Source: Candidatus Latescibacterota bacterium
Lineage (GTDB): Bacteria > Latescibacterota > UBA2968 > SICM01
Assembly: GCA_965217865.1 (NCBI GenBank)
Contig: CBDCJO010000002.1
Location: 4,096,001 to 4,160,000 of the forward strand
Direction of reading: 5' to 3'
Length of the DNA stretch: 64,000 nt
Shown piece after piece: positions 32,873 to 45,556 of this stretch (positions are counted from its first letter, which is position 1; each line of letters opens with the position of its first letter). The notes beneath the pieces were generated by a model. The model was given only the letters and a program-made list of their open reading frames with translations. It had not been told where the DNA came from and made no database searches. A program made the translations under genes and the position numbers.

Positions 32873-32980
32873 GTGCGGGGTTCCTCCTTTAAAAGAAAAA
32901 ATCCCAGAACTTCCCTGGGACAAGGCTGTGAGAAAAAAGATATGTGGATTTGGTCTGGCAGCTAGGCGTGTTAATAGATG

Positions 32981-33583
32981 TTATCCGTACTTGATCCCGT
33001 CGATGAGTTCTTCCACCATCGGCAGCGGAGGATCCTCTTCTCGGATACGTCGAAAAGCCCGGATCTGGTCTACCTCGGCGGTAAGCCGGCTTATGGCCAG
33101 GGCGCGCCGTTCGTCGATTTGACCGGTCCAGACCGCTTCCTGGATCGAGGCCAGGAGGTTGTGTAGCCGTCGGCCGATGACAATTTCCTCCTCAGACATC
33201 GCGAAACGGTCAGCGGCCTCCGATGCGGAGATGTTGAATCCACCGATTCTGAGGAGGGCGTCGGCTTCTTCTAGGGCCATTAAAGGACTCCTTTGAAGAT
33301 TCTCCTGAAGCGCGACCTCCAGCGCCAGATCATCGGGGACACGGCGAACGATGGCGGGGATTTGAAAATGGCCGAGCCGACGGCAGGCCTCCACCCTGCG
33401 ACGACCGGAAATCAACAGATAACGTTCTTCCCGGGGGGACACCAACACAGGGATCAAGAGTCCGTAGCGCTCAATCGAGTGGGTGAGGTCCTCCAGCTCC
33501 AGGTCGCGTTTTCGGTGACGCAACGGAAGGTCATCATCGATTCGGTCGAGGGGGATATCGAAGAGCGTGTCTACCGAGGCCAT
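32981..33583 (-). CDS. ParB/Spo0J-like CTPase-domain protein (short, atypical HTH)
   Basis: SIERYGLLIPVLV, ISGRRR, ALQENLQR, EEA motifs. Confidence 0.85.
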   Translation of the reverse strand: MASVDTLFDIPLDRIDDDLPLRHRKRDLELEDLTHSIERYGLLIPVLVSPREERYLLISGRRRVEACRRLGHFQIPAIVRRVPDDLALEVALQENLQRSPLMALEEADALLRIGGFNISASEAADRFAMSEEEIVIGRRLHNLLASIQEAVWTGQIDERRALAISRLTAEVDQIRAFRRIREEDPPLPMVEELIDGIKYG

Positions 33584-33622
33584 GGATTGGTGTCGGATAT
33601 TCCGGTCTGACAGGAGGCGGAC

Positions 33623-34492
33623 CTACAGATTTTCCCACTCCGTCTCGGGCATGTCTTGGGAAAGCTTGAGGGCTCCGAGCGCCCCACTGTAGATCGGGTC
33701 GTCGACGACTCGGACCCGAGAGGAACCGAATTCGGCGAGGTCATTCTCGATGATCTCCGGCAGCCCCTTGATCTGACTGCCTCCCCCGGCCAAGATGATG
33801 TGATTTCGGAGTTCCTCCTGGAATTCCGGTTCAAAGGTCGTAATCAGTTCCCGGATCGAGGCCAGGGCATCGGGGAGTATGCTTTCGCACGACTCCTTCT
33901 GGTCGATGTCATCCGGTATCGTTCCGTGCATCCGGCAGAGGTCCAAGGTGCCCGCGCCGATGTCCACGATTAGGGCGTTGTTGTATATGCCCAGGCCGTA
34001 TGCCACGAGAAAGGGTTCAGAGACAACCATAACAGCATCCACGAGCCCCTGAACACTGTCGATAATCGCCTGTTTGTCGCTGAGGGTCGCCAGGGCCGGT
34101 GAACCGATGATGGTCCGAACGGTTTGGTTCTCTTTGACCTCGGCCAGAGAGATGACGTGTCTTACGAGTTCATCTCCGGCGATGGCCTCCCGTTCGTTTG
34201 TATCCCCTCCGTTCGTGGTGCGGTACTTGAGGATACCGTTTTCAAGAGGATAGACCAGATCAAGGGCCATCCGATTACGGATGCACTCTTCCCCGAAAAC
34301 GATGGGTTTCTGAATAAATTTATACGAGATCAGGTCTTTCGGCCACCCCACGACAGAGGGAACCGTACGTTTGATGCTCGTACTCGTGGCAATGGAGGAA
34401 TTGGCGGTTCCGAGATCGATTCCCAGGTAAACTACATTGCTTTTCGATGACTCTTGTTGATAAGGCGCGCTTGCTCCCGTCTCCTCCGCCAT
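33623..34492 (-). CDS. mamK: MamK-like actin ATPase
   Basis: YLGIDLGT, SVVGWPKD, YPLENG, VVSEPFLVAYGL, IVDIGAGT, ILAGGGSQIKGL, DPIYSGALGALKL..W follow MamK rather than MreB. Confidence 0.8.
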   Translation of the reverse strand: MAEETGASAPYQQESSKSNVVYLGIDLGTANSSIATSTSIKRTVPSVVGWPKDLISYKFIQKPIVFGEECIRNRMALDLVYPLENGILKYRTTNGGDTNEREAIAGDELVRHVISLAEVKENQTVRTIIGSPALATLSDKQAIIDSVQGLVDAVMVVSEPFLVAYGLGIYNNALIVDIGAGTLDLCRMHGTIPDDIDQKESCESILPDALASIRELITTFEPEFQEELRNHIILAGGGSQIKGLPEIIENDLAEFGSSRVRVVDDPIYSGALGALKLSQDMPETEWENL

Positions 34493-34584
34493 AGTTCGTT
34501 TACCTCCCTATAGACAAATTCGGGAAAGGGGCCCAAAAAAACAGGTGACAAGTGAAGAATGATCTCATCACCCAATCTGTCCGA

Positions 34585-34956
34585 CTAACTGTTTTCGGCG
34601 GGGCGAATTCTAAATTTTGAAGCCACCCCTCCGGGGATGGTTTGAATATCGGGTCTCGTCCTGTCGCGAAGACCGAGGGGATGACGTTCCTGTTGCGATG
34701 GGGGTGATGCGAGCTCATATTGTAGAACTTTTTCCTTCAATCCCGCCCGCCCCATCAGGGTGGAGAACGCAGCCGCAGATTGGCGGTCCTCAAAAGTTCG
34801 ACCGCCGAGGTCAAGGGTGGATATCTCCTCCGTTTGAGGTGAAAGCAATGCTTTCTCCTGGTCCATCCGGCGGCGAAGATATACGCTGTGCCGAATTGCC
34901 CGACCCTGTTCAAGGTCCTCGTCTCGGAGTATATTGATAAGATGATTAAGTCCCAA
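34585..34956 (-). CDS. Hypothetical protein in the mamA-mamK-parB-like operon
   Basis: 123 aa, co-oriented, about 22 bp after the TPR gene stop. Confidence 0.5.
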   Translation of the reverse strand: MGLNHLINILRDEDLEQGRAIRHSVYLRRRMDQEKALLSPQTEEISTLDLGGRTFEDRQSAAAFSTLMGRAGLKEKVLQYELASPPSQQERHPLGLRDRTRPDIQTIPGGVASKFRIRPAENS

Positions 34957-34978
34957 GCCTAAACCTTAATGCAGAACT

Positions 34979-35911
34979 TCAGTCCGATTTCTTGAAGAAT
35001 TCTATCGCTTTATCGTGTTCCCCCTTGGACTCATAAGCTAGACCGAGGCTCCGGTAGATGCCTTGAAAAGTGGGGGCGCGTTCCACGACGCGGAGGTAAG
35101 ATGCGACCGCTTCGTTGTAATTCTTGTTTTGAATGTGGACGGTCCCAAGGCGATAGTGGCTCTCCGCAATTTCAGGGGCCAGTTCGATGGCCTTCGTCAG
35201 ACAGCGCACAGCCTCGTCGTGGTTACCGTTTTTCGTGTAGATATCCGCAAGCTTGTAATATGCCTTCAGGTAGCTCGAGTCCAAGGAGATGGTTTTCCGA
35301 TAAGACTCGATGGCCTCACGGTGGTTCCCGGCATTATCGAAGGCCACGCCGAGTTTGAAGTTGGCCAAGGCATTCTTTTCGTCAAATTCGACGGTCTTAC
35401 TAAAGGATTCGATGGCCTTTTCATATTCTCCGTTGTTTCCGTTGTTGTTGTAGTTAATCCCGAGTCGGTCGTGTATGTAGGCCAGGTCTTCCTTTGACAG
35501 GCCGAATACATCCTCATAGAAGGAGACCGCCCGATCTGACAGACGCTTGGCGTGAAGGAGGAAGGAGTAGCAGGTGTTTTCAAAATCGCTTATCCGGTGC
35601 TCCAAACGATCAAGCCGAGCCTCGACATTTTTTAGCCTCCGGCCTTCCCCTTCATCTCCTTGCCAGGTCTCTTCACGAGCCCCCCAATCCTCAGTCAAGG
35701 TTTCTTTGGGGGATTTTTCTGCAGCGGGTTCTCCGGTCTCCTGACCCGTCTTGGATGGTATTTCTTCATCAGGAGAGGCGTACTCCTTCAGGACACTGGA
35801 CCTGGTCGATTCGGTGGAGGGGCGTCCCTTGAGCCCTACAGCTGGGGGTGGAATAAACAGCCGTTCCTTTCGTTTGCGCTTTGGGCCGGTGGGTCTCTGT
35901 TCTTGGTTCAA
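34979..35911 (-). CDS. MamA-like TPR protein with disordered/coiled-coil N-terminal extension
   Basis: About 5 TPRs; pre-TPR helix HAKRLSDRAVSFYEDVFGLS..D...GI and end AYESKGEHDKAIEFFKK resemble MamA; GAAGGGGG RBS before TTG. Confidence 0.7.
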   Translation of the reverse strand: MNQEQRPTGPKRKRKERLFIPPPAVGLKGRPSTESTRSSVLKEYASPDEEIPSKTGQETGEPAAEKSPKETLTEDWGAREETWQGDEGEGRRLKNVEARLDRLEHRISDFENTCYSFLLHAKRLSDRAVSFYEDVFGLSKEDLAYIHDRLGINYNNNGNNGEYEKAIESFSKTVEFDEKNALANFKLGVAFDNAGNHREAIESYRKTISLDSSYLKAYYKLADIYTKNGNHDEAVRCLTKAIELAPEIAESHYRLGTVHIQNKNYNEAVASYLRVVERAPTFQGIYRSLGLAYESKGEHDKAIEFFKKSD

Positions 35912-36131: not shown

Positions 36132-36242
36132 TATATAGTTAAAAGCGGTTAAGAAGTCAAGCCCTTTTTTTCATAGTTATTTAGAGCATATCCACACAGT
36201 TAAATAGATAGTTAAAAGGGTGAGAGAAGTCAAGCCTTTTTT
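36132..36242 (-). promoter_or_regulatory. Tandem duplicated sigma70 promoters for the mamA-like operon
   Basis: TTGACT-N17-TATCTA (36233-36205) and TTGACT-N17-TATATA (36160-36132) within a ~35-bp direct repeat. Confidence 0.65.
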
Positions 36243-37504: not shown

Positions 37505-38368
37505 CTATTCCGTAAGGTGGTGGGCGAAGGCGAAGAGGATATATCCGACCAGGATGGTCGGGAACAGGTTCAATGGGCCGATCAAGAGGCCTGATGCAAG
37601 AAAGAATCCTCCCGTGAAGCCGGCGGCGGCAAGAAAAGCCAACCCTCTTCCGAACCTCCCGACGCTGTGCGGGAGAACCGCGGTGAATTCTCCCGCGGGT
37701 GCGAATACAAGCTTACCGCGCTGGCGTTCCACCTCCAGCCGGTAAAGCTTCGTCATCACCTTTTCGTCCGGTCTGTCCTGATAGACCAGGAGGACGTTTT
37801 CATATTTCGTGGAGATGATCCTGGCGAGCTTCCCGTCGCGTCGGATGGTCACTCCTGGACAGAACGTTGTTCCGTCACCACTTGCCGGAGGGGCATCTTG
37901 CGGTGGCGTCGGTTGGGCACGGGCCTTTGCCTGTGCCTTTTTTGCGGCCATGGCCTCCGCACTGACGGAAGGCTCCCGCCCCGGTTTTGTCGCTGCTTTT
38001 GGAGCGGAAGGGGTTGGAGATTTTTTCCCGCCCGCCTTGGCGGCTCGCATGGCCTCGGCCTTGGCCTTTGCCCGGGCAACGCGGTCGGTGATGGCGTCGA
38101 GGCTGGATAGGTCGATCGATCCCTCGTCGGGTGGGCTCTCCGTTTGCGCCTGGGGGGGGGCCTCCGGCACAGGAGAGGCCTCTGCAGAAGGCGTCTGGGA
38201 AACGGGCGTTGGGGCCGGAGAAGCGGGCCCGGAAGAGGATGGTGTTCCCCCTTCCGTTCCTCCGCCCGCCTTGGCAGCCCGCATCGCTTCTGCTTTTGCT
38301 TTTGCCCGGGCGACACGATCCGAGATTCCGTCGAACGACGACAGGTCCACCTTTTTTTCTTCTGCCAT
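37505..38368 (-). CDS. Hypothetical membrane protein with two DLS..D.I.DRVARAKAKAEAMRAAK repeats
   Basis: Pro/Ala-rich linkers and a hydrophobic C-terminus; the same motif starts the Rieske protein. Confidence 0.7.
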   Translation of the reverse strand: MAEEKKVDLSSFDGISDRVARAKAKAEAMRAAKAGGGTEGGTPSSSGPASPAPTPVSQTPSAEASPVPEAPPQAQTESPPDEGSIDLSSLDAITDRVARAKAKAEAMRAAKAGGKKSPTPSAPKAATKPGREPSVSAEAMAAKKAQAKARAQPTPPQDAPPASGDGTTFCPGVTIRRDGKLARIISTKYENVLLVYQDRPDEKVMTKLYRLEVERQRGKLVFAPAGEFTAVLPHSVGRFGRGLAFLAAAGFTGGFFLASGLLIGPLNLFPTILVGYILFAFAHHLTE

Positions 38369-38429
38369 TTTATGGATCCCAAAGGAAACGACTTTGGTTT
38401 GCGTGTATCGATGATCCCGCAAGTCGGAA

Positions 38430-38521
38430 AATTTATCTCTGTGACGATTCCCTGTCAATAGAAAAGTTGGAGAAATGCGGAAATGCGCCAAGTTGACAAC
38501 CCCTGGGAAAGTTGATATATT
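38430..38521. promoter_or_regulatory. Divergent sigma70 promoters
   Basis: Minus: TTGACA(38458)-N17-TAAATT; plus: TTGACA(38493)-N17-TATATT. Confidence 0.65.
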
Positions 38522-38574: not shown

Positions 38575-39498
38575 ATGGAAGAATCGAAAGACGAGGAATC
38601 CCCGTTAACCCCGGAAAGCCTGAGACGAATCTCAGAGGAGGCCGGCAAACCCGAGTCGACCGCTGAATCTCCGATGAAGATGGTCGGTCAGCTCGTTTTG
38701 TTTCCGTTGGCCATCGCCGGAGTCTGCGTGTCGATTTTTCTTCTCTACAGCTTGCTCGCGCAGGAGGAGCGTACTCCACGGGACTTACTGAACGACGTTC
38801 GAGTAGGCGGATCGAGCCGGAGGTGGCAGGCGGCCTATAGCCTCGCTGCTCTTCTCAGCAAGGCCGATGGGAAGGAAACCGGAGCTGCCCTGGTCCCAGA
38901 GATGATCCGCACTTTCGAGGAAGCAAAAAAAGACGATCCGAGGGTCCGGCAATATCTCGCCCTTTCGCTCGGTGAAATTGGCGACCGGAGGGCCACACCC
39001 GCGTTGATCCTTGCGCTGGAGGATGCAGATGATCGGACTCGAATTTTTGCGATCCGGTCCCTGGGATTTTTGCGGGATACGAGCAGCGTGACCGCGCTGT
39101 TAACTCAGGCGGAGTCGAGCGATCCGGGCATCAAAAAGGCGGTGTCCCACGCGTTGGGGCTGTTAGGTGACGACCGGGCGGTTCCCGCGCTCCGCGGGAT
39201 GCTCAACTCAGGTGATCCCAACGTACGATGGAATGCAGCGCTGGCGTTGTGTCGATTCAAGGATCGACCGGGATTGGGTGTGATCGAAGAGATGCTCGAC
39301 CGGGATTTTTTAAACCGGATATCGGCAATGAACGAGGAGCAGCGGGAAGAGGCCATGCTGAATGCCCTCCGGGGCGTCGTGCTGCTTCAAGAACGCTCGT
39401 TTGACCAGACGCTGAACAGGCTCAAAATGAAAGATCCCAGTCTCAAGGTGCGACAAGCCGCAATCGACGCGATCGAAGCCCTGGAACAACCGAGATGA
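38575..39498 (+). CDS. Membrane-anchored HEAT-repeat protein
   Basis: One TM, then DPRVRQYLALSLGEIGD..A.PALI.AL.D repeats. Confidence 0.85.
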   Translation: MEESKDEESPLTPESLRRISEEAGKPESTAESPMKMVGQLVLFPLAIAGVCVSIFLLYSLLAQEERTPRDLLNDVRVGGSSRRWQAAYSLAALLSKADGKETGAALVPEMIRTFEEAKKDDPRVRQYLALSLGEIGDRRATPALILALEDADDRTRIFAIRSLGFLRDTSSVTALLTQAESSDPGIKKAVSHALGLLGDDRAVPALRGMLNSGDPNVRWNAALALCRFKDRPGLGVIEEMLDRDFLNRISAMNEEQREEAMLNALRGVVLLQERSFDQTLNRLKMKDPSLKVRQAAIDAIEALEQPR

Positions 39499-39530
39499 CG
39501 GATCGGCTTCAAACCCTTTCCTGTTTTTCC

Positions 39531-39559
39531 TTGACAGGTATGATTATCCTTTTTAATTT
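39531..39559 (+). promoter_or_regulatory. sigma70 promoter of the Rieske/cyt b operon
   Basis: TTGACA-N17-TAATTT. Confidence 0.55.
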
Positions 39560-39625
39560 CAAAGTCTATACCTCGAAAACTCACTCCTTTTTATTAAGAA
39601 CGGCTGCTGTCTTTTTCAAAGCAGG

Positions 39626-40468
39626 ATGACAATGTCAGAAGAGGGCAAGGTCGACCTTTCCCAGTTCGACAGCATTCAGGATCGGGTGGCGAGGGCCAAA
39701 GCGAAGGCGGAGGCTATGCGCGCGGCCAAAGGCGGGGCCGCGGCCCCTGCTCCTGAACAAAAGGCCGAGACCTCGCCGGAGGCTGCACAAACGCAAGCTG
39801 AAGCTGCGCCGGCTGTCCCGGAGCCGAAGGCCGTGCCGGCTCCCCCTGAAACAGCACCGGAGCTCCCTGCACCCCCCCCCTTAAGTACCGTGGAGAAGGC
39901 GGCTGCGACCCGAAAGCAGCGGGCCGCGACGCTTTCCAAGGCGGCGAGGGCGACGAAGGCGTCGGAGCCGGCCGATGCGGCTGTGTCCCGCCGGGGATTT
40001 TTCTCGTGGCTGGCCGTGGCGTGGGTGGCCTTTTCCGCTGCGATGGCAGCCGGCGTCGCCGCGATGACCCGGTTCCTCTTCCCCAATGTGCTGTTCGAGC
40101 CTCCCCAGGCCTTCAAGGCCGGGCTGCCCGAAGACTACGATCGAGGGAAGGTGGACGAGCGGTGGAAGGAAAAATTTGGAGTTTGGATCGTCCGGAACGA
40201 GGAGGGAATATTCGCGCTTTCCACCGTCTGCACCCACCTGGGCTGCACTCCGAACTGGCTCGAGGGAGAGAACAAGTTTAAATGCCCCTGCCACGGAAGC
40301 GGGTTCTACAGGACGGGGATCAATTTTGAAGGTCCCGCCCCCCGTCCATTGGAGCGCTACCGGGTTGTCCTCGCAAGCGACGGACAGATCCTGGTGGACA
40401 AGAACAAAAAATACCAGCAGGAGAAGGGTCAGTGGAAAGACCCCGAGTCTTTCCTGAGACTGGCTTGA
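39626..40468 (+). CDS. qcrA: Rieske Fe-S subunit with long N-terminal extension
   Basis: Tat motif SRRGFF, CTHLGC and CPCHGS boxes, GPAPRPL. Confidence 0.92.
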   Translation: MTMSEEGKVDLSQFDSIQDRVARAKAKAEAMRAAKGGAAAPAPEQKAETSPEAAQTQAEAAPAVPEPKAVPAPPETAPELPAPPPLSTVEKAAATRKQRAATLSKAARATKASEPADAAVSRRGFFSWLAVAWVAFSAAMAAGVAAMTRFLFPNVLFEPPQAFKAGLPEDYDRGKVDERWKEKFGVWIVRNEEGIFALSTVCTHLGCTPNWLEGENKFKCPCHGSGFYRTGINFEGPAPRPLERYRVVLASDGQILVDKNKKYQQEKGQWKDPESFLRLA

Positions 40469-40495
40469 GGAATTCGTCGAGGGAGATATAATAAG

Positions 40496-41281
40496 ATGCC
40501 CAAAGCGTCCAATTTGATGGACCCAATCAAACGTTCTCAGATCTGGAAGTCGATCTTCCGGCACGACATCCCGTCCGAAGACCGGGGACGGGCACAGGTC
40601 GTTCTGACCAATGTCTTTCTGCACCTCCATCCCGTCCGGACGCCCAAATCAGGGATCCGTGTCCGCTATACGTGGTGCATGGGGGGGCTTACGTTTTTCC
40701 TCTTCCTCGTGGAGACGGTAACGGGCATCCTGTTGATGTTCTATTACCGACCGACTCTGGAGTTCGCCTACACGGATATGATCGACCTCGGTGAGCAGGT
40801 GCCGCTGGGCATCTTGCGGGAGATCCACAGGTGGGGGGCGCACGCGATGGTGTTGAGCGTCTGGCTCCACATGCTTCGGGTGTTCATGACGGGAGCCTAC
40901 AAGCCGCCCAGGGAGTTCAACTGGGCCATCGGCGTTATCCTTCTCATAGTGACACTCTTCCTCAGTTTCACGGGCTACCTGCTTCCCTGGGATCAGCTGG
41001 CCATCTGGGCGGTGACGGTCGGAACGAATATGGCGCGCGCCACCCCCTTCATGGGACACGAGGGGCCCGGCGCGGCATTCTTGAAGTTCGGGGACATCAA
41101 TCTGGTTCACGCCGGGAGCGACGTCCGCTTCGCCTTGCTCGCCGGACGGTTCGTCGGGGAGGGGACGCTGCTCCGCTTCTATGTACTCCACTGCCTGGCC
41201 GTTCCGTTTCTTGCCGCGCTTTTGATGGCGGTACACTTCTGGCGGGTTCGGAAGGACGGCGGCATATCAGGACCGCTGTGA
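40496..41281 (+). CDS. qcrB: Cytochrome b6-type (N-terminal cytochrome b) subunit
   Basis: [36 protein letters not shown]. Confidence 0.92.
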
Positions 41282-41348
41282 TCCGGGACCGCCGATTTCA
41301 TCGCAATCCCACCTTTTTCATTCATTATCTCCCTGGTTATAAAGAATC

Positions 41349-42425
41349 GTGATGTTCCTTAAAGAGGCCATCAATTTCATTTGCACACCCGAATACCTTC
41401 TTCCCCTCTCCGCCGTTCTTTTCCTCCTGGCCCTCCGCACCCGATTGATCTGGACCAACAAGGTCGGGCTGATCGCCCTTATCGGGACGATCGGTTTTTT
41501 TGTTCTCAGCATGTGGGACCCCGATTTCGCGATCATCGTCAAGAAACCGGACAACGTACCGATCGTATCCCTGATCTTTTTGATGGGCTTTTTCATCTGG
41601 TTCAGCATGAAACAGGGATATGAGAACGACGATCGGATCGCAAGGGGGGAGGCGGTGGCTGAGAAGGGGGAATTCCAGGAGAAGATCTTCACCTGGCCTC
41701 ACCTGGTCTACATCGAGTTCATCGCGCTGATCCTGTGCACGGTCCTGCTGGTGGCCTGGTCCATCCTGATCAAAGCCCCGCTGGAAGAGCCCGCGAATCC
41801 CGCCAAGACGCCCAACCCTTCCAAAGCCCCCTGGTACTTTCTCGGCCTGCAGGAGATGCTGGTTTACTTCGACCCATGGATCGCGGGCGTCGTGCTTCCC
41901 GGCATCATCGTCGTGGGCCTGATGGCCATTCCGTACATCGACCGGAACGGCAGAGGATCGGGGTACTACACCTTCAAGCAGAGGCCGTTTGCCATCACGA
42001 TCTTCCTGTTGGGTTTTCTGATCCTGTGGGTGCAGATGGTGGTGCTTGGCACTTTTCTACGGGGGCCGAACTGGAACTTCTTCGGACCGTATGAGTTTTG
42101 GGATATTCACAAGCTTGTTCCTCTGTCGAACGTCAACCTCTCCGAGTACATCTACGTCAAGGGATTTGCGACAGGTCTCCCGAAGAACATCCTCCTGCGG
42201 GAGATGTGGGGGTTTCTGCTGATTTTTCTTTATTTTACAGCGCTTCCACCGATCCTCTCACGGACCTGGTTGAAGGACTTTTATAACCAACTGGGATTCG
42301 TCCGGTACAATGTGCTCGCCTTTCTGCTCTTGACGATGCTCTCGCTCCCCATCAAGATGGTATTAAGATGGGTATTCAACCTGAAATACCTCGTCGCGAT
42401 TCCCGAGTTCTTCTTTAACATATAG
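41349..42425 (+). CDS. Cytochrome b C-terminal / subunit IV-like protein, extended
   Basis: APLEEPANP..TPNPSKAPWYFLGLQE, IPYIDRN, RPFA. Confidence 0.85.
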   Translation: MMFLKEAINFICTPEYLLPLSAVLFLLALRTRLIWTNKVGLIALIGTIGFFVLSMWDPDFAIIVKKPDNVPIVSLIFLMGFFIWFSMKQGYENDDRIARGEAVAEKGEFQEKIFTWPHLVYIEFIALILCTVLLVAWSILIKAPLEEPANPAKTPNPSKAPWYFLGLQEMLVYFDPWIAGVVLPGIIVVGLMAIPYIDRNGRGSGYYTFKQRPFAITIFLLGFLILWVQMVVLGTFLRGPNWNFFGPYEFWDIHKLVPLSNVNLSEYIYVKGFATGLPKNILLREMWGFLLIFLYFTALPPILSRTWLKDFYNQLGFVRYNVLAFLLLTMLSLPIKMVLRWVFNLKYLVAIPEFFFNI

Positions 42426-42565
42426 GAGAAAAAACGTCAAACGTGAGACGTGAAAAGGCAGTGGCAGTGGCAGGAAAAGTGCCAAGACTTGAGAATACAT
42501 TTTGACTTCTGTATCAATCCACTAAAACTTTAACATCTTAGGTATTCTACACAACGGAGCTTCGG

Positions 42566-45556
42566 TTGGAAGCGCCCCATTTCGTCGCTTACGTCTACCG
42601 GATCAACAGGGTCAACGCGATCTTCGCGCTCTCCAGCATCCTGCTCCTGGTCTTCCTGGTCTGGATGGTCTGGCAGGACTTTGACAGGGATTGGAAGCGG
42701 TTTCAGCGGGCGGCCAACCGGCTGGAGATCGCCAAGACGGAGGCCGAGCACGAGATGGCTGCGCAGGAGATCGACCGGGAGAGGCTGGGCCAGCTGGAGA
42801 ACGATCTGGGGGCTGCGCGCTCAAATCTTGCCCTTAGGGAGGGGGAGATCGAAGCCATTCAGGGGAAGGTTGACGACATCTCCGACAGGTTCTACAAGGC
42901 GGATATGGACTTCCGGTTTGCCAAGGCGGATTACGACGTGCTGCGTTTCGAGTATGAGGAGGCCGCCCTGCACTACGGAGAAGACGGGGCTGTGAAGGAG
43001 AAGGAGGAGCTGGACCGGCTCGGGGCCAGGATCAAGGGGGAACTCGCGATCGCGGTCGAGCAGGTCCAGGAGGAGGAGGCCGGGGAAACGAAGCGAATGA
43101 CAGACGCCACAGCGGATCGGGATGAGATCGAACGCCAGATCGCCGCAATGGAGAAGGCGACAAACCGGCTGGATCGGAAGCTGGCCGCCATTGGGGATAA
43201 CTTTTTCAACACCTTCTTCCGCAATCAACCGCTGCTGGATTTTCTGGCCCCGTCGGAGAAGGTCCTCCAGGTCGTGATTCCGGGCATTCTGGATGACGTG
43301 AACTTCGTTCAGGTTCCGAAGGTGGACCGGTGCCAGACGTGCCACCTGAACATCGACCGGCCCGGCTACGAGGTCGACGCTGAGACCGGCTTCTTCCAGG
43401 ATGATGCCCTCCGGGAACACATGGAGAAGGAACATGCGGACCTGTCGGAGCGGAAGGCCAATACCCGGGTGTTTGCGACCCACCCGAACCCGGACCTGGT
43501 TCTCGGGGGGGGGTCCCCACACCCGATCGAAAATTCGGGATGCACTATCTGTCACCTTGGCCGGGGGCGGGGGACCACGTTCACGAACACGGCGCACACC
43601 CCGAAGGATGTCGAAGAGGAAAATGCGTGGGAGGAACGTTACGGGTGGCATAAGATGCATTATTGGGAGCATCCGATGCTTCCGATGATCTACTCCGAGG
43701 CGATGTGCGCGAAGTGCCACAAGGGCGTGGTGGACATCCCGAAAGCGGACAGGCTGAATCGGGGGAGGCAGCTTGTTGAAACCCTGGGATGTTTCGGGTG
43801 TCACAAGATCGGGGGCTACGAAGGGCTGCGGAAGGTGGGGCCGGATCTGACGAGGATCAGGGGGAAGCTGGAACCGGAATGGGTTTCCAAATGGGTGAAC
43901 AACCCGAAGGACTTCCGGCCGACGACCAAGATGCCGCGCTTCTTCCATCTGTCGAACACAAGCGAACCCGAGGACCGGGCTCGAAGCATTGCGTTGATCA
44001 ATGGGATCACGGCTTATCTGTTCGAGAACTCGGAGGGGTCGTCCTATCCCCCGCCGCCTGTTCGGGGAAACCCGTCTCGAGGCCGAGAGCTGGTGGAGAA
44101 GGTGGGGTGCAAGGGCTGTCACGTGGTGGGTAGGGTGGATCAGACCGAGCGGTCGTACGACGACCGGAGCTTCGGTCCGAACCTGAACCAGATCGGGAGC
44201 AAGGTGAAGCTCGGGTGGCTGTTCGCGTGGCTGAAGGACCCTCACGACTACTTCCCGGAGACGCGCATGCCGGACCTCCGGTTGACGGATCAGGAAGCTT
44301 CGGACATCGCTGCGTATCTGATGATCTTCACGAATTCCGAATTCGAAGGAATGAGCCCGGAACGGACCGAGGACGCGGCCCGGGACGAGATGGCGTTTTT
44401 CTACTTGCGCGCCAAGATGACGGACAAACTGGCGCGAAAGAAACTTTCGGAGATGTCGGTCCGGGAAAAGGATCTGTTCCTGGGCGAACTGGCGATCTCC
44501 CGGCAGGGCTGCTACGGGTGCCACATCATCGGAGGATTCGAGAAGGCGCAGAAGATCGGGACCGAGCTGACGGTGGCGGGGGACAAGGCGATCGACAGGC
44601 TGGAATTCGGGTTCATCGACATCCCGAAAACACGGCACGATTGGTTCTTCCAGAAGCTGAAGGACCCCCGGGTCTTCGACGAAGGGAAGTTTAAGGCCTA
44701 CGACGAGAAGCTTCGGATGCCGAATTTCAATCTATCGGATGAAGACATCCATTCCATCACGATGGCGCTTCTGAGCTTCACGAAGGACGACGTCCCCCTG
44801 AGGAGCAAGAAGAATCTTTCTCCCTCTGAAATTGCGGTCGTGCGGGGACAACGCCTGGTCCGAGACCACAACTGCAGGGGGTGCCATATCATCGAGGATG
44901 CCGGGGGTGCGATCCGTCCATCAATCGCAGGGGCCTACGCGGAGGAGGGGCGTTCGGAGGCGGATGCCCTGGCCTTCAGCCCGCCTGTGCTTCACGGAGA
45001 AGGGGCGAAAGTCCAACCCGAATGGCTGTTTGAATTTTTGAAAAAGCCGACTCCGATCCGTCCCTGGCTGGAGGTGAGGATGCCGACGTTCGGGTTCTCC
45101 GACGGGGAAGCAACCGATATCGCCAAATATTTCTCCGCGCTCGACAACGAGGTCTTTCCTTACGAGACCATCCCGGAAAAAAGGATGAGGGGGAGGGAAA
45201 TGCGTGGGGCGCAGAAACTGTTCAGCAAGGAATATTTCGATTGCCTGAACTGCCACCAGGAGGGAGAGAAGAAACCCCTCGGGGATCCGTCGCGATGGGC
45301 CCCGGACCTGGCCAACGCGAGGGATCGGCTGAGGCCGAAGTGGATCGCGGATTGGTTGCGCGATCCGCAGAAGATCCAGCCCGGTACGAAGATGCCAAGC
45401 TTCTTCGACGAGATGATCTATTTGCCGGAGGAGATGAACCAATACCTGACCCTTCCGGAGGGCGTTGTTCCGGAGGACGGTCTGATTGAGATTCCGAGCC
45501 GGCCGGTGATCAATCTGGTGACCGATCACATTGTTTACGGGATGCATCAGAATTGA
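42566..45556 (+). CDS. Membrane-anchored octaheme c-type cytochrome with coiled-coil stalk
   Basis: 8 CxxCH motifs: CQTCH, CTICH, CAKCH, CFGCH, CKGCH, CYGCH, CRGCH, CLNCH. Confidence 0.9.
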   Translation: MEAPHFVAYVYRINRVNAIFALSSILLLVFLVWMVWQDFDRDWKRFQRAANRLEIAKTEAEHEMAAQEIDRERLGQLENDLGAARSNLALREGEIEAIQGKVDDISDRFYKADMDFRFAKADYDVLRFEYEEAALHYGEDGAVKEKEELDRLGARIKGELAIAVEQVQEEEAGETKRMTDATADRDEIERQIAAMEKATNRLDRKLAAIGDNFFNTFFRNQPLLDFLAPSEKVLQVVIPGILDDVNFVQVPKVDRCQTCHLNIDRPGYEVDAETGFFQDDALREHMEKEHADLSERKANTRVFATHPNPDLVLGGGSPHPIENSGCTICHLGRGRGTTFTNTAHTPKDVEEENAWEERYGWHKMHYWEHPMLPMIYSEAMCAKCHKGVVDIPKADRLNRGRQLVETLGCFGCHKIGGYEGLRKVGPDLTRIRGKLEPEWVSKWVNNPKDFRPTTKMPRFFHLSNTSEPEDRARSIALINGITAYLFENSEGSSYPPPPVRGNPSRGRELVEKVGCKGCHVVGRVDQTERSYDDRSFGPNLNQIGSKVKLGWLFAWLKDPHDYFPETRMPDLRLTDQEASDIAAYLMIFTNSEFEGMSPERTEDAARDEMAFFYLRAKMTDKLARKKLSEMSVREKDLFLGELAISRQGCYGCHIIGGFEKAQKIGTELTVAGDKAIDRLEFGFIDIPKTRHDWFFQKLKDPRVFDEGKFKAYDEKLRMPNFNLSDEDIHSITMALLSFTKDDVPLRSKKNLSPSEIAVVRGQRLVRDHNCRGCHIIEDAGGAIRPSIAGAYAEEGRSEADALAFSPPVLHGEGAKVQPEWLFEFLKKPTPIRPWLEVRMPTFGFSDGEATDIAKYFSALDNEVFPYETIPEKRMRGREMRGAQKLFSKEYFDCLNCHQEGEKKPLGDPSRWAPDLANARDRLRPKWIADWLRDPQKIQPGTKMPSFFDEMIYLPEEMNQYLTLPEGVVPEDGLIEIPSRPVINLVTDHIVYGMHQN

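Follow-up and report, generated by a model that had tools for sequence, protein, structure and literature searches.

The closest described relatives of the system treated here are the magnetoskeleton proteins MamA, MamJ and MamK of magnetotactic bacteria. MamA self-assembles, and MamJ and the MamJ-like Mg-1g50 are encoded directly upstream of mamK and possess a variable Pro/Glu-rich middle with short motifs (available portions of PMC10653835 and PMC3905215). Relatives of MamK are already known outside magnetotactic bacteria in saltatorellin and BeeR (excerpts of 10.1101/817700 and PMC11929497). ParB-type CTP folds likewise occur apart from parA and in cytoskeletal operons, as in the orphan ParBs Noc and VirB and in PadC of Myxococcus, which binds CTP without hydrolysis and is specified by a bactofilin operon (available text of PMC10653881 and PMC12704722). 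Here we describe a four-gene operon at 32981..35911 of a 64,000-nucleotide stretch of a Candidatus Latescibacterota genome (contig CBDCJO010000002.1, positions 4,096,001 to 4,160,000; hereafter the window), which encodes a MamA-related tetratricopeptide repeat (TPR) protein, a short linker open reading frame (ORF), a MamK-family actin and an orphan ParB-like protein. It is a conserved, selected operon of the uncultured phylum Ca. Latescibacterota that has been lost as a block; the operon is no magnetosome cluster, nor does it encode a canonical ParB. Judged from the sequences, its products likely work like the MamA-MamJ-MamK magnetoskeleton with a ParB-fold regulator added. The literature searched yielded no account of a MamA relative next to MamK, accompanied by a linker and an orphan ParB and lacking biomineralisation genes; the supplementary lists of PMC7449369, whose accessible text reports 227 of 2798 MamK-like metagenome matches together with other mam genes, may hold these actins. 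The genes and the principal mutation are as follows.

34979..35911, minus strand: MamA-related TPR protein, 310 amino acids (AA), by NCBIfam, model and tree
34585..34956, minus strand: candidate adaptor/linker ORF, 123 AA, with short conserved motifs and no family match
33623..34492, minus strand: MamK-family actin, deletion allele, 289 AA (the intact allele, P0006, has 357 AA)
33898..33899, minus strand: junction of an in-frame 204-bp deletion in the actin gene, residues 199-266 of the intact allele being absent
32981..33583, minus strand: orphan truncated ParB/Noc-like protein, 200 AA, with CTP Box I kept

The four ORFs are co-oriented and separated by gaps of 22, 92 and 39 bp, as the initial annotation had recorded. 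The top NCBIfam matches are MamK for the actin (307 bits), MamA for the TPR protein (127.5 bits) and Noc/ParB for the fourth gene; the 123-AA ORF has no NCBIfam match. The genome (6.43 Mb in two contigs, 96% complete, 9% contamination) contains this single MamK-like locus, as well as MreB and a canonical parAB at another site. Its close relatives are labelled Ca. Latescibacterota or Handelsmanbacteria in the databases, some being mislabelled Gemmatimonadetes.

Conservation was followed through 168 genomes of the phylum, within which f1 to f4 denote families, g4 and g13 genera, and G000 the window's own genome. The actin gene occurs in 31, of which 12 belong to f1, f3 and f4 and 19 to f2. The TPR gene is present in 13, namely the same 12 genomes and one contig-end fragment; 11 of those 12 also carry the ParB-like gene, and the module genes are always adjacent. 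Among 72 actin loci the order TPR-linker-actin recurs in 11 besides the window, with the ParB-like gene in view in 10, which is the synteny that the initial annotation had proposed to seek in other genomes. In G102 exactly these four genes are absent between the same flanks, and the adjoining cytochrome b is retained in all 15 g13 genomes without the block. This cytochrome gene is part of a conserved bc-like respiratory cluster adjoining the operon (38575-45556: HEAT-repeat, Rieske, cytochrome b and larger genes), and a functional link to the cluster was dismissed because it persists in genomes that have lost the module. In the f2 loci (e.g. L059 11143-11679) the actin gene is followed by a conserved coiled-coil gene of about 178 AA starting MG(I/L)xxFLT(S/A)xRLK; in one of them (L115, G023:C35) an insertion that contains a 342-AA ORF splits the actin gene after codon ~153.

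The actin carries SVVGWPKD, VSEPFLVAYGL and GALGALKL...W, the MamK-type signatures noticed in the initial annotation. Against the MamK model NF040964 (cut-off 400) the intact orthologue of the relative G001 scores 406.8 bits, a conspecific intact allele 397.6 and the window allele 307; a true cluster MamK, that of the Nitrospinota cluster L112, itself scores 343.9. With the BeeR model NF053558 the score is 195.6 bits against a cut-off of 530. In Foldseek searches with the model of the intact actin, MamK structures ranked 1-3 and BeeR fourth, MreB reaching a TM score of 0.77; superposition on the MamK filament 5LJV gave a TM score of 0.88 and an rmsd of 1.7. The fold and the phosphate and catalytic motifs are those of Magnetospirillum MamK (5LJV/5LJW), to which the intact allele is about 40% identical. 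In the tree the Latescibacterota actins and those of KSB1-like genomes constitute a clade (100/99), apart from BeeR and within an unresolved MamK radiation that mixes cluster-encoded and non-cluster genes (rows P0250-P0398 being labelled by hidden Markov model (HMM) score alone). They are not nested among the sampled cluster MamKs. Over three families the actin is 72-90% identical. A mobile origin of the module was rejected: a plasmid search gave no match to it, a viral scan with the L112 MamK was empty, and the GC content of the operon region is unremarkable.

The in-frame deletion leaves the window's actin 68 AA short of the length of its relatives, and the protein aligns with MamK 5LJW as two pieces, MamK 184-250 being skipped; the database protein P0006 is otherwise identical and possesses the additional 68 residues. 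The deleted stretch comprises one strand and the whole of subdomain IIB, to use the name from the actin fold: in the P0006 model (pLDDT 92.6) residues 199-266 form that strand plus the two helices and the hairpin of IIB. All four actin subdomains are thus present in the intact allele, and IIB is absent from that of the window. The junction was sought in eight sequencing runs. Contigs from X1 (study P1) and X3 (study P2), either of which may be source data of the window's assembly, cross it without the insert; X2 (P2) shows both forms, the short arm (58 letters, depth 14) falling below the 31-letter bridging rule and the long arm having a depth of 4; X7, X8, X13 and X17 carry the 204-bp insert, and X14 has no cover there. 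Since contigs of separate runs cross the junction without the insert and X2 holds both forms, assembly error was rejected as the cause, and the deletion is natural and polymorphic across sequencing runs. IIB both grips the nucleotide and provides the longitudinal contact along the strand in BeeR and related filaments (excerpt of PMC11929497), so the short allele would probably not polymerise normally; this copy is probably inactive, with conspecific strains keeping an intact one. The initial annotation had overlooked this deletion. Of the 26 single-base differences listed for strains X7 and X8 within the four genes, 22 are synonymous, a purifying pattern.

MamK-family actins were also seen in other settings. 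Two loci of KSB1 and Caldithrix (L081 7725-14515, L089 7229-15910) specify two MamK-like actins each, one with an N-terminal extension of 370-920 AA, and behind them comes an MglAB-like set of three roadblock/LC7 genes and a small GTPase gene. Archaeal examples come from Thermoplasmata (L100 7462-12045 and L087), that of L100 directly following cheA and cheD. In Brocadiales and other Planctomycetota (L080-L097) MamK-family actins score above the cut-off (L080, 428.7 bits) and have a conserved helical gene in front of them; the loci examined contain no mam genes. P0291, a 768-AA database protein, joins FtsZ to a MamK-family actin and could be a gene-calling artefact.

The TPR protein is, by its sequence, a relative of MamA. 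It contains a low-confidence, likely disordered N-terminus of about 90 AA, a long helix and about five TPR-type helix pairs, and it matches MamA in register from the pre-TPR helix through the last repeat, the two regions in which a resemblance had originally been suspected. Two orthologues score 127.5 and 145.3 bits with the MamA model NF040959 (cut-off 200), under which two cluster MamAs also fall (178 and 170 bits). Among the 32 matches of this model in the genome, the TPR protein alone spans it from position 9. When the 59-63 residues that lead up to and enter the first repeat were searched by themselves, MamA was the sole match among 18,950 models for three of three orthologues (E 1.4e-4 to 3.5e-4, profile 9-52); the equivalent segment of MamA from the KSB1-like genome G168, discussed below, also matches, and that of the L112 MamA does not. 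MamA structures (3VTX, 3AS8, 4XI0) are the best natural Foldseek matches. FastTree joined five TPR orthologues to six MamA-type rows with support of 97 against 36 generic TPRs, and IQ-TREE placed them as sister to these rows (98/91) against 19; cluster context was seen for four of the six rows, MamA sampling is thin, and the TPR outgroups are poor roots. Grouping with the G168 MamA was not rejected (p-AU 0.1). The protein differs from MamA in an N-terminal extension of about 100 AA and in lying beside, not inside, the sampled MamA clade. Its gene contains a 9-bp repeat expansion (NNG) at 35429, missing from strains X7 and X8 and from P0148.

The 123-AA protein, for which the ESM Atlas gave no usable match, is only 15-24% identical to its orthologues outside family f1. 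What these share is an N-terminal helix motif and IPGG[IV]xx[RK]F, to which the f3/f4 relatives add a C-terminal ITIELQSH. A variable linker with short conserved motifs looks like a tether, and this anatomy supports the initial annotation's choice of the ORF as the candidate adaptor. It resembles MamJ in lying directly upstream of the actin gene and in its layout, with short conserved motifs around a variable Pro/Glu-rich middle, and differs in being much shorter and in matching no family.

The ParB-like protein (200-204 AA, against 289 for the genome's canonical ParB) keeps Box I, DLTHSIERYGLLIP, in agreement with the motif ELxxSIxxxGxxxP as given in the available text of PMC10653881, and an ENLQ-type Box III. 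In Box II the glutamate is replaced: most orthologues have GRRRxEA and one GQRR, versus the canonical GERRxRA. The recognition helix, RSTVAN in the canonical ParB, has become acidic (EEEIVI/REEVAV), the C-terminal dimerisation domain is absent and no parA adjoins the gene. Also absent is the N-terminal ParA-binding motif (L/F/I)G(K/R)G(L/F/I) (PMC12704722, accessible part), which the canonical protein possesses as a tail of the LGKGL type. In structure the ParB-like protein comes closest to Noc, ParB and Spo0J, the likeness covering the CTPase and helix-turn-helix (HTH) domains. Matches to Noc and Spo0J reach E 1e-37 to 1e-31, against E 1e-8 for 6RYK, which we take to be PadC; its partner here is an actin, not a bactofilin. 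Having GRRR in place of GERR and an acidic helix, and lacking both the LGKGL tail and the C-terminal domain, the protein would suit the part of a nucleotide-bound hub better than that of a DNA clamp.

The genome was searched for magnetosome genes with the proteins of the L112 cluster. MamM, MamP, MamQ, MamI-like and MamL-like proteins gave no match, MamE/O queries found protease domains only, and HMM searches were also negative, with no mamB, mamQ, mamP or mamI; no magnetosome cluster was found elsewhere in the genome from which the operon could be a displaced piece. More widely, MamP is absent from all 168 phylum genomes, cation diffusion facilitators of MamB grade occur in none of 132 class genomes at E 1e-60, and MamQ was not found in G000 or in the single-contig genomes G078 and G103. 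Because the magnet-making genes searched for were not found, the positioned cargo is likely something other than magnets.

The reading that we tentatively prefer is that, in swimming cells, the products of the operon act together as a magnet-free track on which membrane-attached cargo is positioned. The intact actin would bind ATP and form treadmilling filaments of the MamK type along the cell. By way of its N-terminal helices of the MamA type, the TPR protein would self-assemble and coat the cargo on its cytoplasmic face; the short motifs of the linker would tether this coat to the filament in the manner of MamJ. The ParB-like protein would be a CTP-loaded hub, probably neither hydrolysing CTP nor binding DNA, as PadC on bactofilins. 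The output would most likely be the placing or partitioning of a structure tied to the swimming axis, such as the flagellated pole or an aligned membrane patch or vesicle.

The tie to swimming comes from the distribution of flagella, which had escaped the initial annotation. All 31 actin carriers encode fliG and flagellin, and the actin was found in none of 80 flagellin-negative genomes; within f1, f3 and f4 it is present in 12 of 16 flagellin-positive and 0 of 40 flagellin-negative genomes. The association is suggestive only, since the losses fall in few genera. Chemoreceptor arrays were tried as cargo and rejected: the CheA dimerisation domain occurs in 3 of the 12 four-gene genomes, G000 not among them, and in 16 of 132 class genomes. 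As a separate observation, fliG is multi-copy in flagellated members of the class, with up to 11 matches per genome and seven in G000 at E<=1e-20 (e.g. C2:5266644 and C2:2548043); the two copies inspected lie outside flagellar clusters, and most of these genomes have no CheA match.

Several points weigh against a positioning track in swimming cells. The actin is missing from 21 of 52 flagellin-positive genomes, and in the 19 f2 genomes the actin gene has a coiled-coil neighbour, TPR and ParB-like genes being absent; the four-part set is therefore not needed for swimming. The flagellum-less genera represent only a few lineages, in which many genes may have been lost at once, and their members, being kin, are not independent. 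The operon includes no membrane protein gene, no cargo was identified, and the likeness of the linker to MamJ is one of layout only. Finally, the window's own actin allele is broken, and frameshifts or stops occur in the orthologues L048, L052, L053 and L061, through sequencing error or decay.

The same machine might instead carry a cargo unrelated to motility, a bacterial microcompartment (BMC) or an unknown vesicle, the flagellar link then reflecting joint loss in host-associated lineages. MamA does coat vesicles (PMC3905215, available portion), the losses are confined to few genera, a microcompartment locus is present in the genome, and BMC vertex genes occur in each of the 12 four-gene genomes. 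These genes are also present in 122 of 132 class genomes and do not co-vary with the module, since all the module-less g13 and g4 genomes have them too; encapsulin was found in 0 of the 12, and the gas-vesicle protein GvpA was not found in G000, in a search whose positive control was silent too. We consider this rather unlikely. A DNA-linked system, an actin-driven partition or nucleoid-occlusion device in which the ParB-like protein sits as a clamp on DNA and links nucleoid or origin with the actin filament, would suit the structural kinship with Noc, ParB and Spo0J over both domains and the position of the gene after the actin in 11 genomes and in L072 of G168. The changes in Box II, recognition helix and C-terminus, together with the canonical parAB elsewhere in the genome, make it improbable.

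A cargo-free filament that, with its accessory proteins, has a structural or shape-changing role would have a precedent in saltatorellin, a MamK-like protein of non-magnetic Saltatorellota that forms filaments and is proposed to drive shape change (10.1101/817700, as far as available), and many MamK-like genes of other phyla adjoin coiled-coil genes. It would leave the retained MamA-related coat protein unexplained in a genome that has MreB besides, and is quite improbable; for saltatorellin and BeeR, the latter in a separate clade, the accessible text of 10.1101/817700 and PMC11929497 mentions no MamA-like or ParB-like partner. That the operon was left behind by a magnetosome cluster, as a now functionless decaying relic or displaced fragment, is very unlikely: its nearest outside relative sits in a genome with such a cluster, and broken alleles exist, but the identity of the actin over three families, the within-species synonymous excess, a conserved promoter motif and the missing MamP, MamB-grade and MamQ proteins all speak against decay.

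That nearest relative is G168, apparently a magnetotactic member of the KSB1-like group to judge by its genes. A cluster of mamM/B/A/Q/N/O-like genes and feoB lies on contig C135 (L146), and a linker-actin-ParB operon (L072) on C145; the two contigs are near-equal in GC content (33.2 vs 33.6%), although binning could mislead. The L072 operon resembles that of the window in an IPxG..RF linker, a sister-clade actin, which is the sole MamK-like gene found in G168, and an equally truncated ParB-like gene. It differs in that its mamA is within the magnetosome cluster on the other contig. The module was either cut down from a cluster-bearing ancestor and retained for another job, or is older than magnetosomes and was recruited; the place of the TPR protein as sister to the sampled MamA tips the balance only slightly to the latter. 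The actin follows the host lineage, that of Latescibacterota grouping with those of KSB1-like genomes. The fuller proposal, that the operon is a surviving magnet-free magnetoskeleton older than magnetosomes, a coat-tether-filament-CTP module placing membrane cargo in motile bacteria from which magnetotactic bacteria recruited MamA and MamK, is on balance doubtful; were it true, G168, with its operon apart from the biomineralisation cluster, would show the recruitment step. The initial annotation, which had not considered G168, had named observations that would speak against its interpretation, namely an actin grouping with MreB and a TPR protein with generic TPRs, no conserved linkage, or a displaced cluster, and none of these was made; its account of kinship and linkage holds.

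Upstream and downstream of the operon, three elements were recorded.

36205..36233, minus strand: promoter-like copy 1, TTGACT-N17-TATCTA, upstream motif
36132..36160, minus strand: promoter-like copy 2, TTGACT-N17-TATATA (G001, L046, has a single copy)
32901..32921, minus strand: possible intrinsic terminator 3' of the ParB-like gene, weak (6 sites found vs 6.7 expected)

The tandem promoters proposed earlier stand in part. The two TTGACT-N17-TAT(C/A)TA copies are true repeats, 73 bp apart, and a matching GC/CTTGACTT...TATAT motif lies, as a single copy, upstream of the TPR gene in seven of nine relatives examined, but a generic promoter scan missed both copies and called two other sites, against 2.9 expected. 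Genome-wide, TTGAC-N-17-TAnnnT shows a peak of 577 versus 68-138 at other spacings; at N-17 spacing the window's boxes lack the final T of TAnnnT. An Rfam scan of the window found tRNA only. In RNA run X17 short contigs lie over the operon, two spanning gene boundaries; as contigs cannot show transcription, they were not counted as evidence. Beyond the promoter region, the protein encoded at 37505-38491 contains two copies of the motif DRVARAKAKAEAMRAAK, and the Rieske protein (39626-40468) has one at its N-terminus; matching N-terminal stretches are found in relatives.

For MamA the module supplies the closest non-magnetic outgroup; its four proteins also make up a system open to testing, in which a natural deletion allele of the actin alongside intact alleles is a ready-made comparison. 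The combination of mamK and mamA is an unsafe marker of magnetotaxis. The operon bears on the origin of the magnetosome chain machinery and on whether bacteria possess a general actin-based cargo track.

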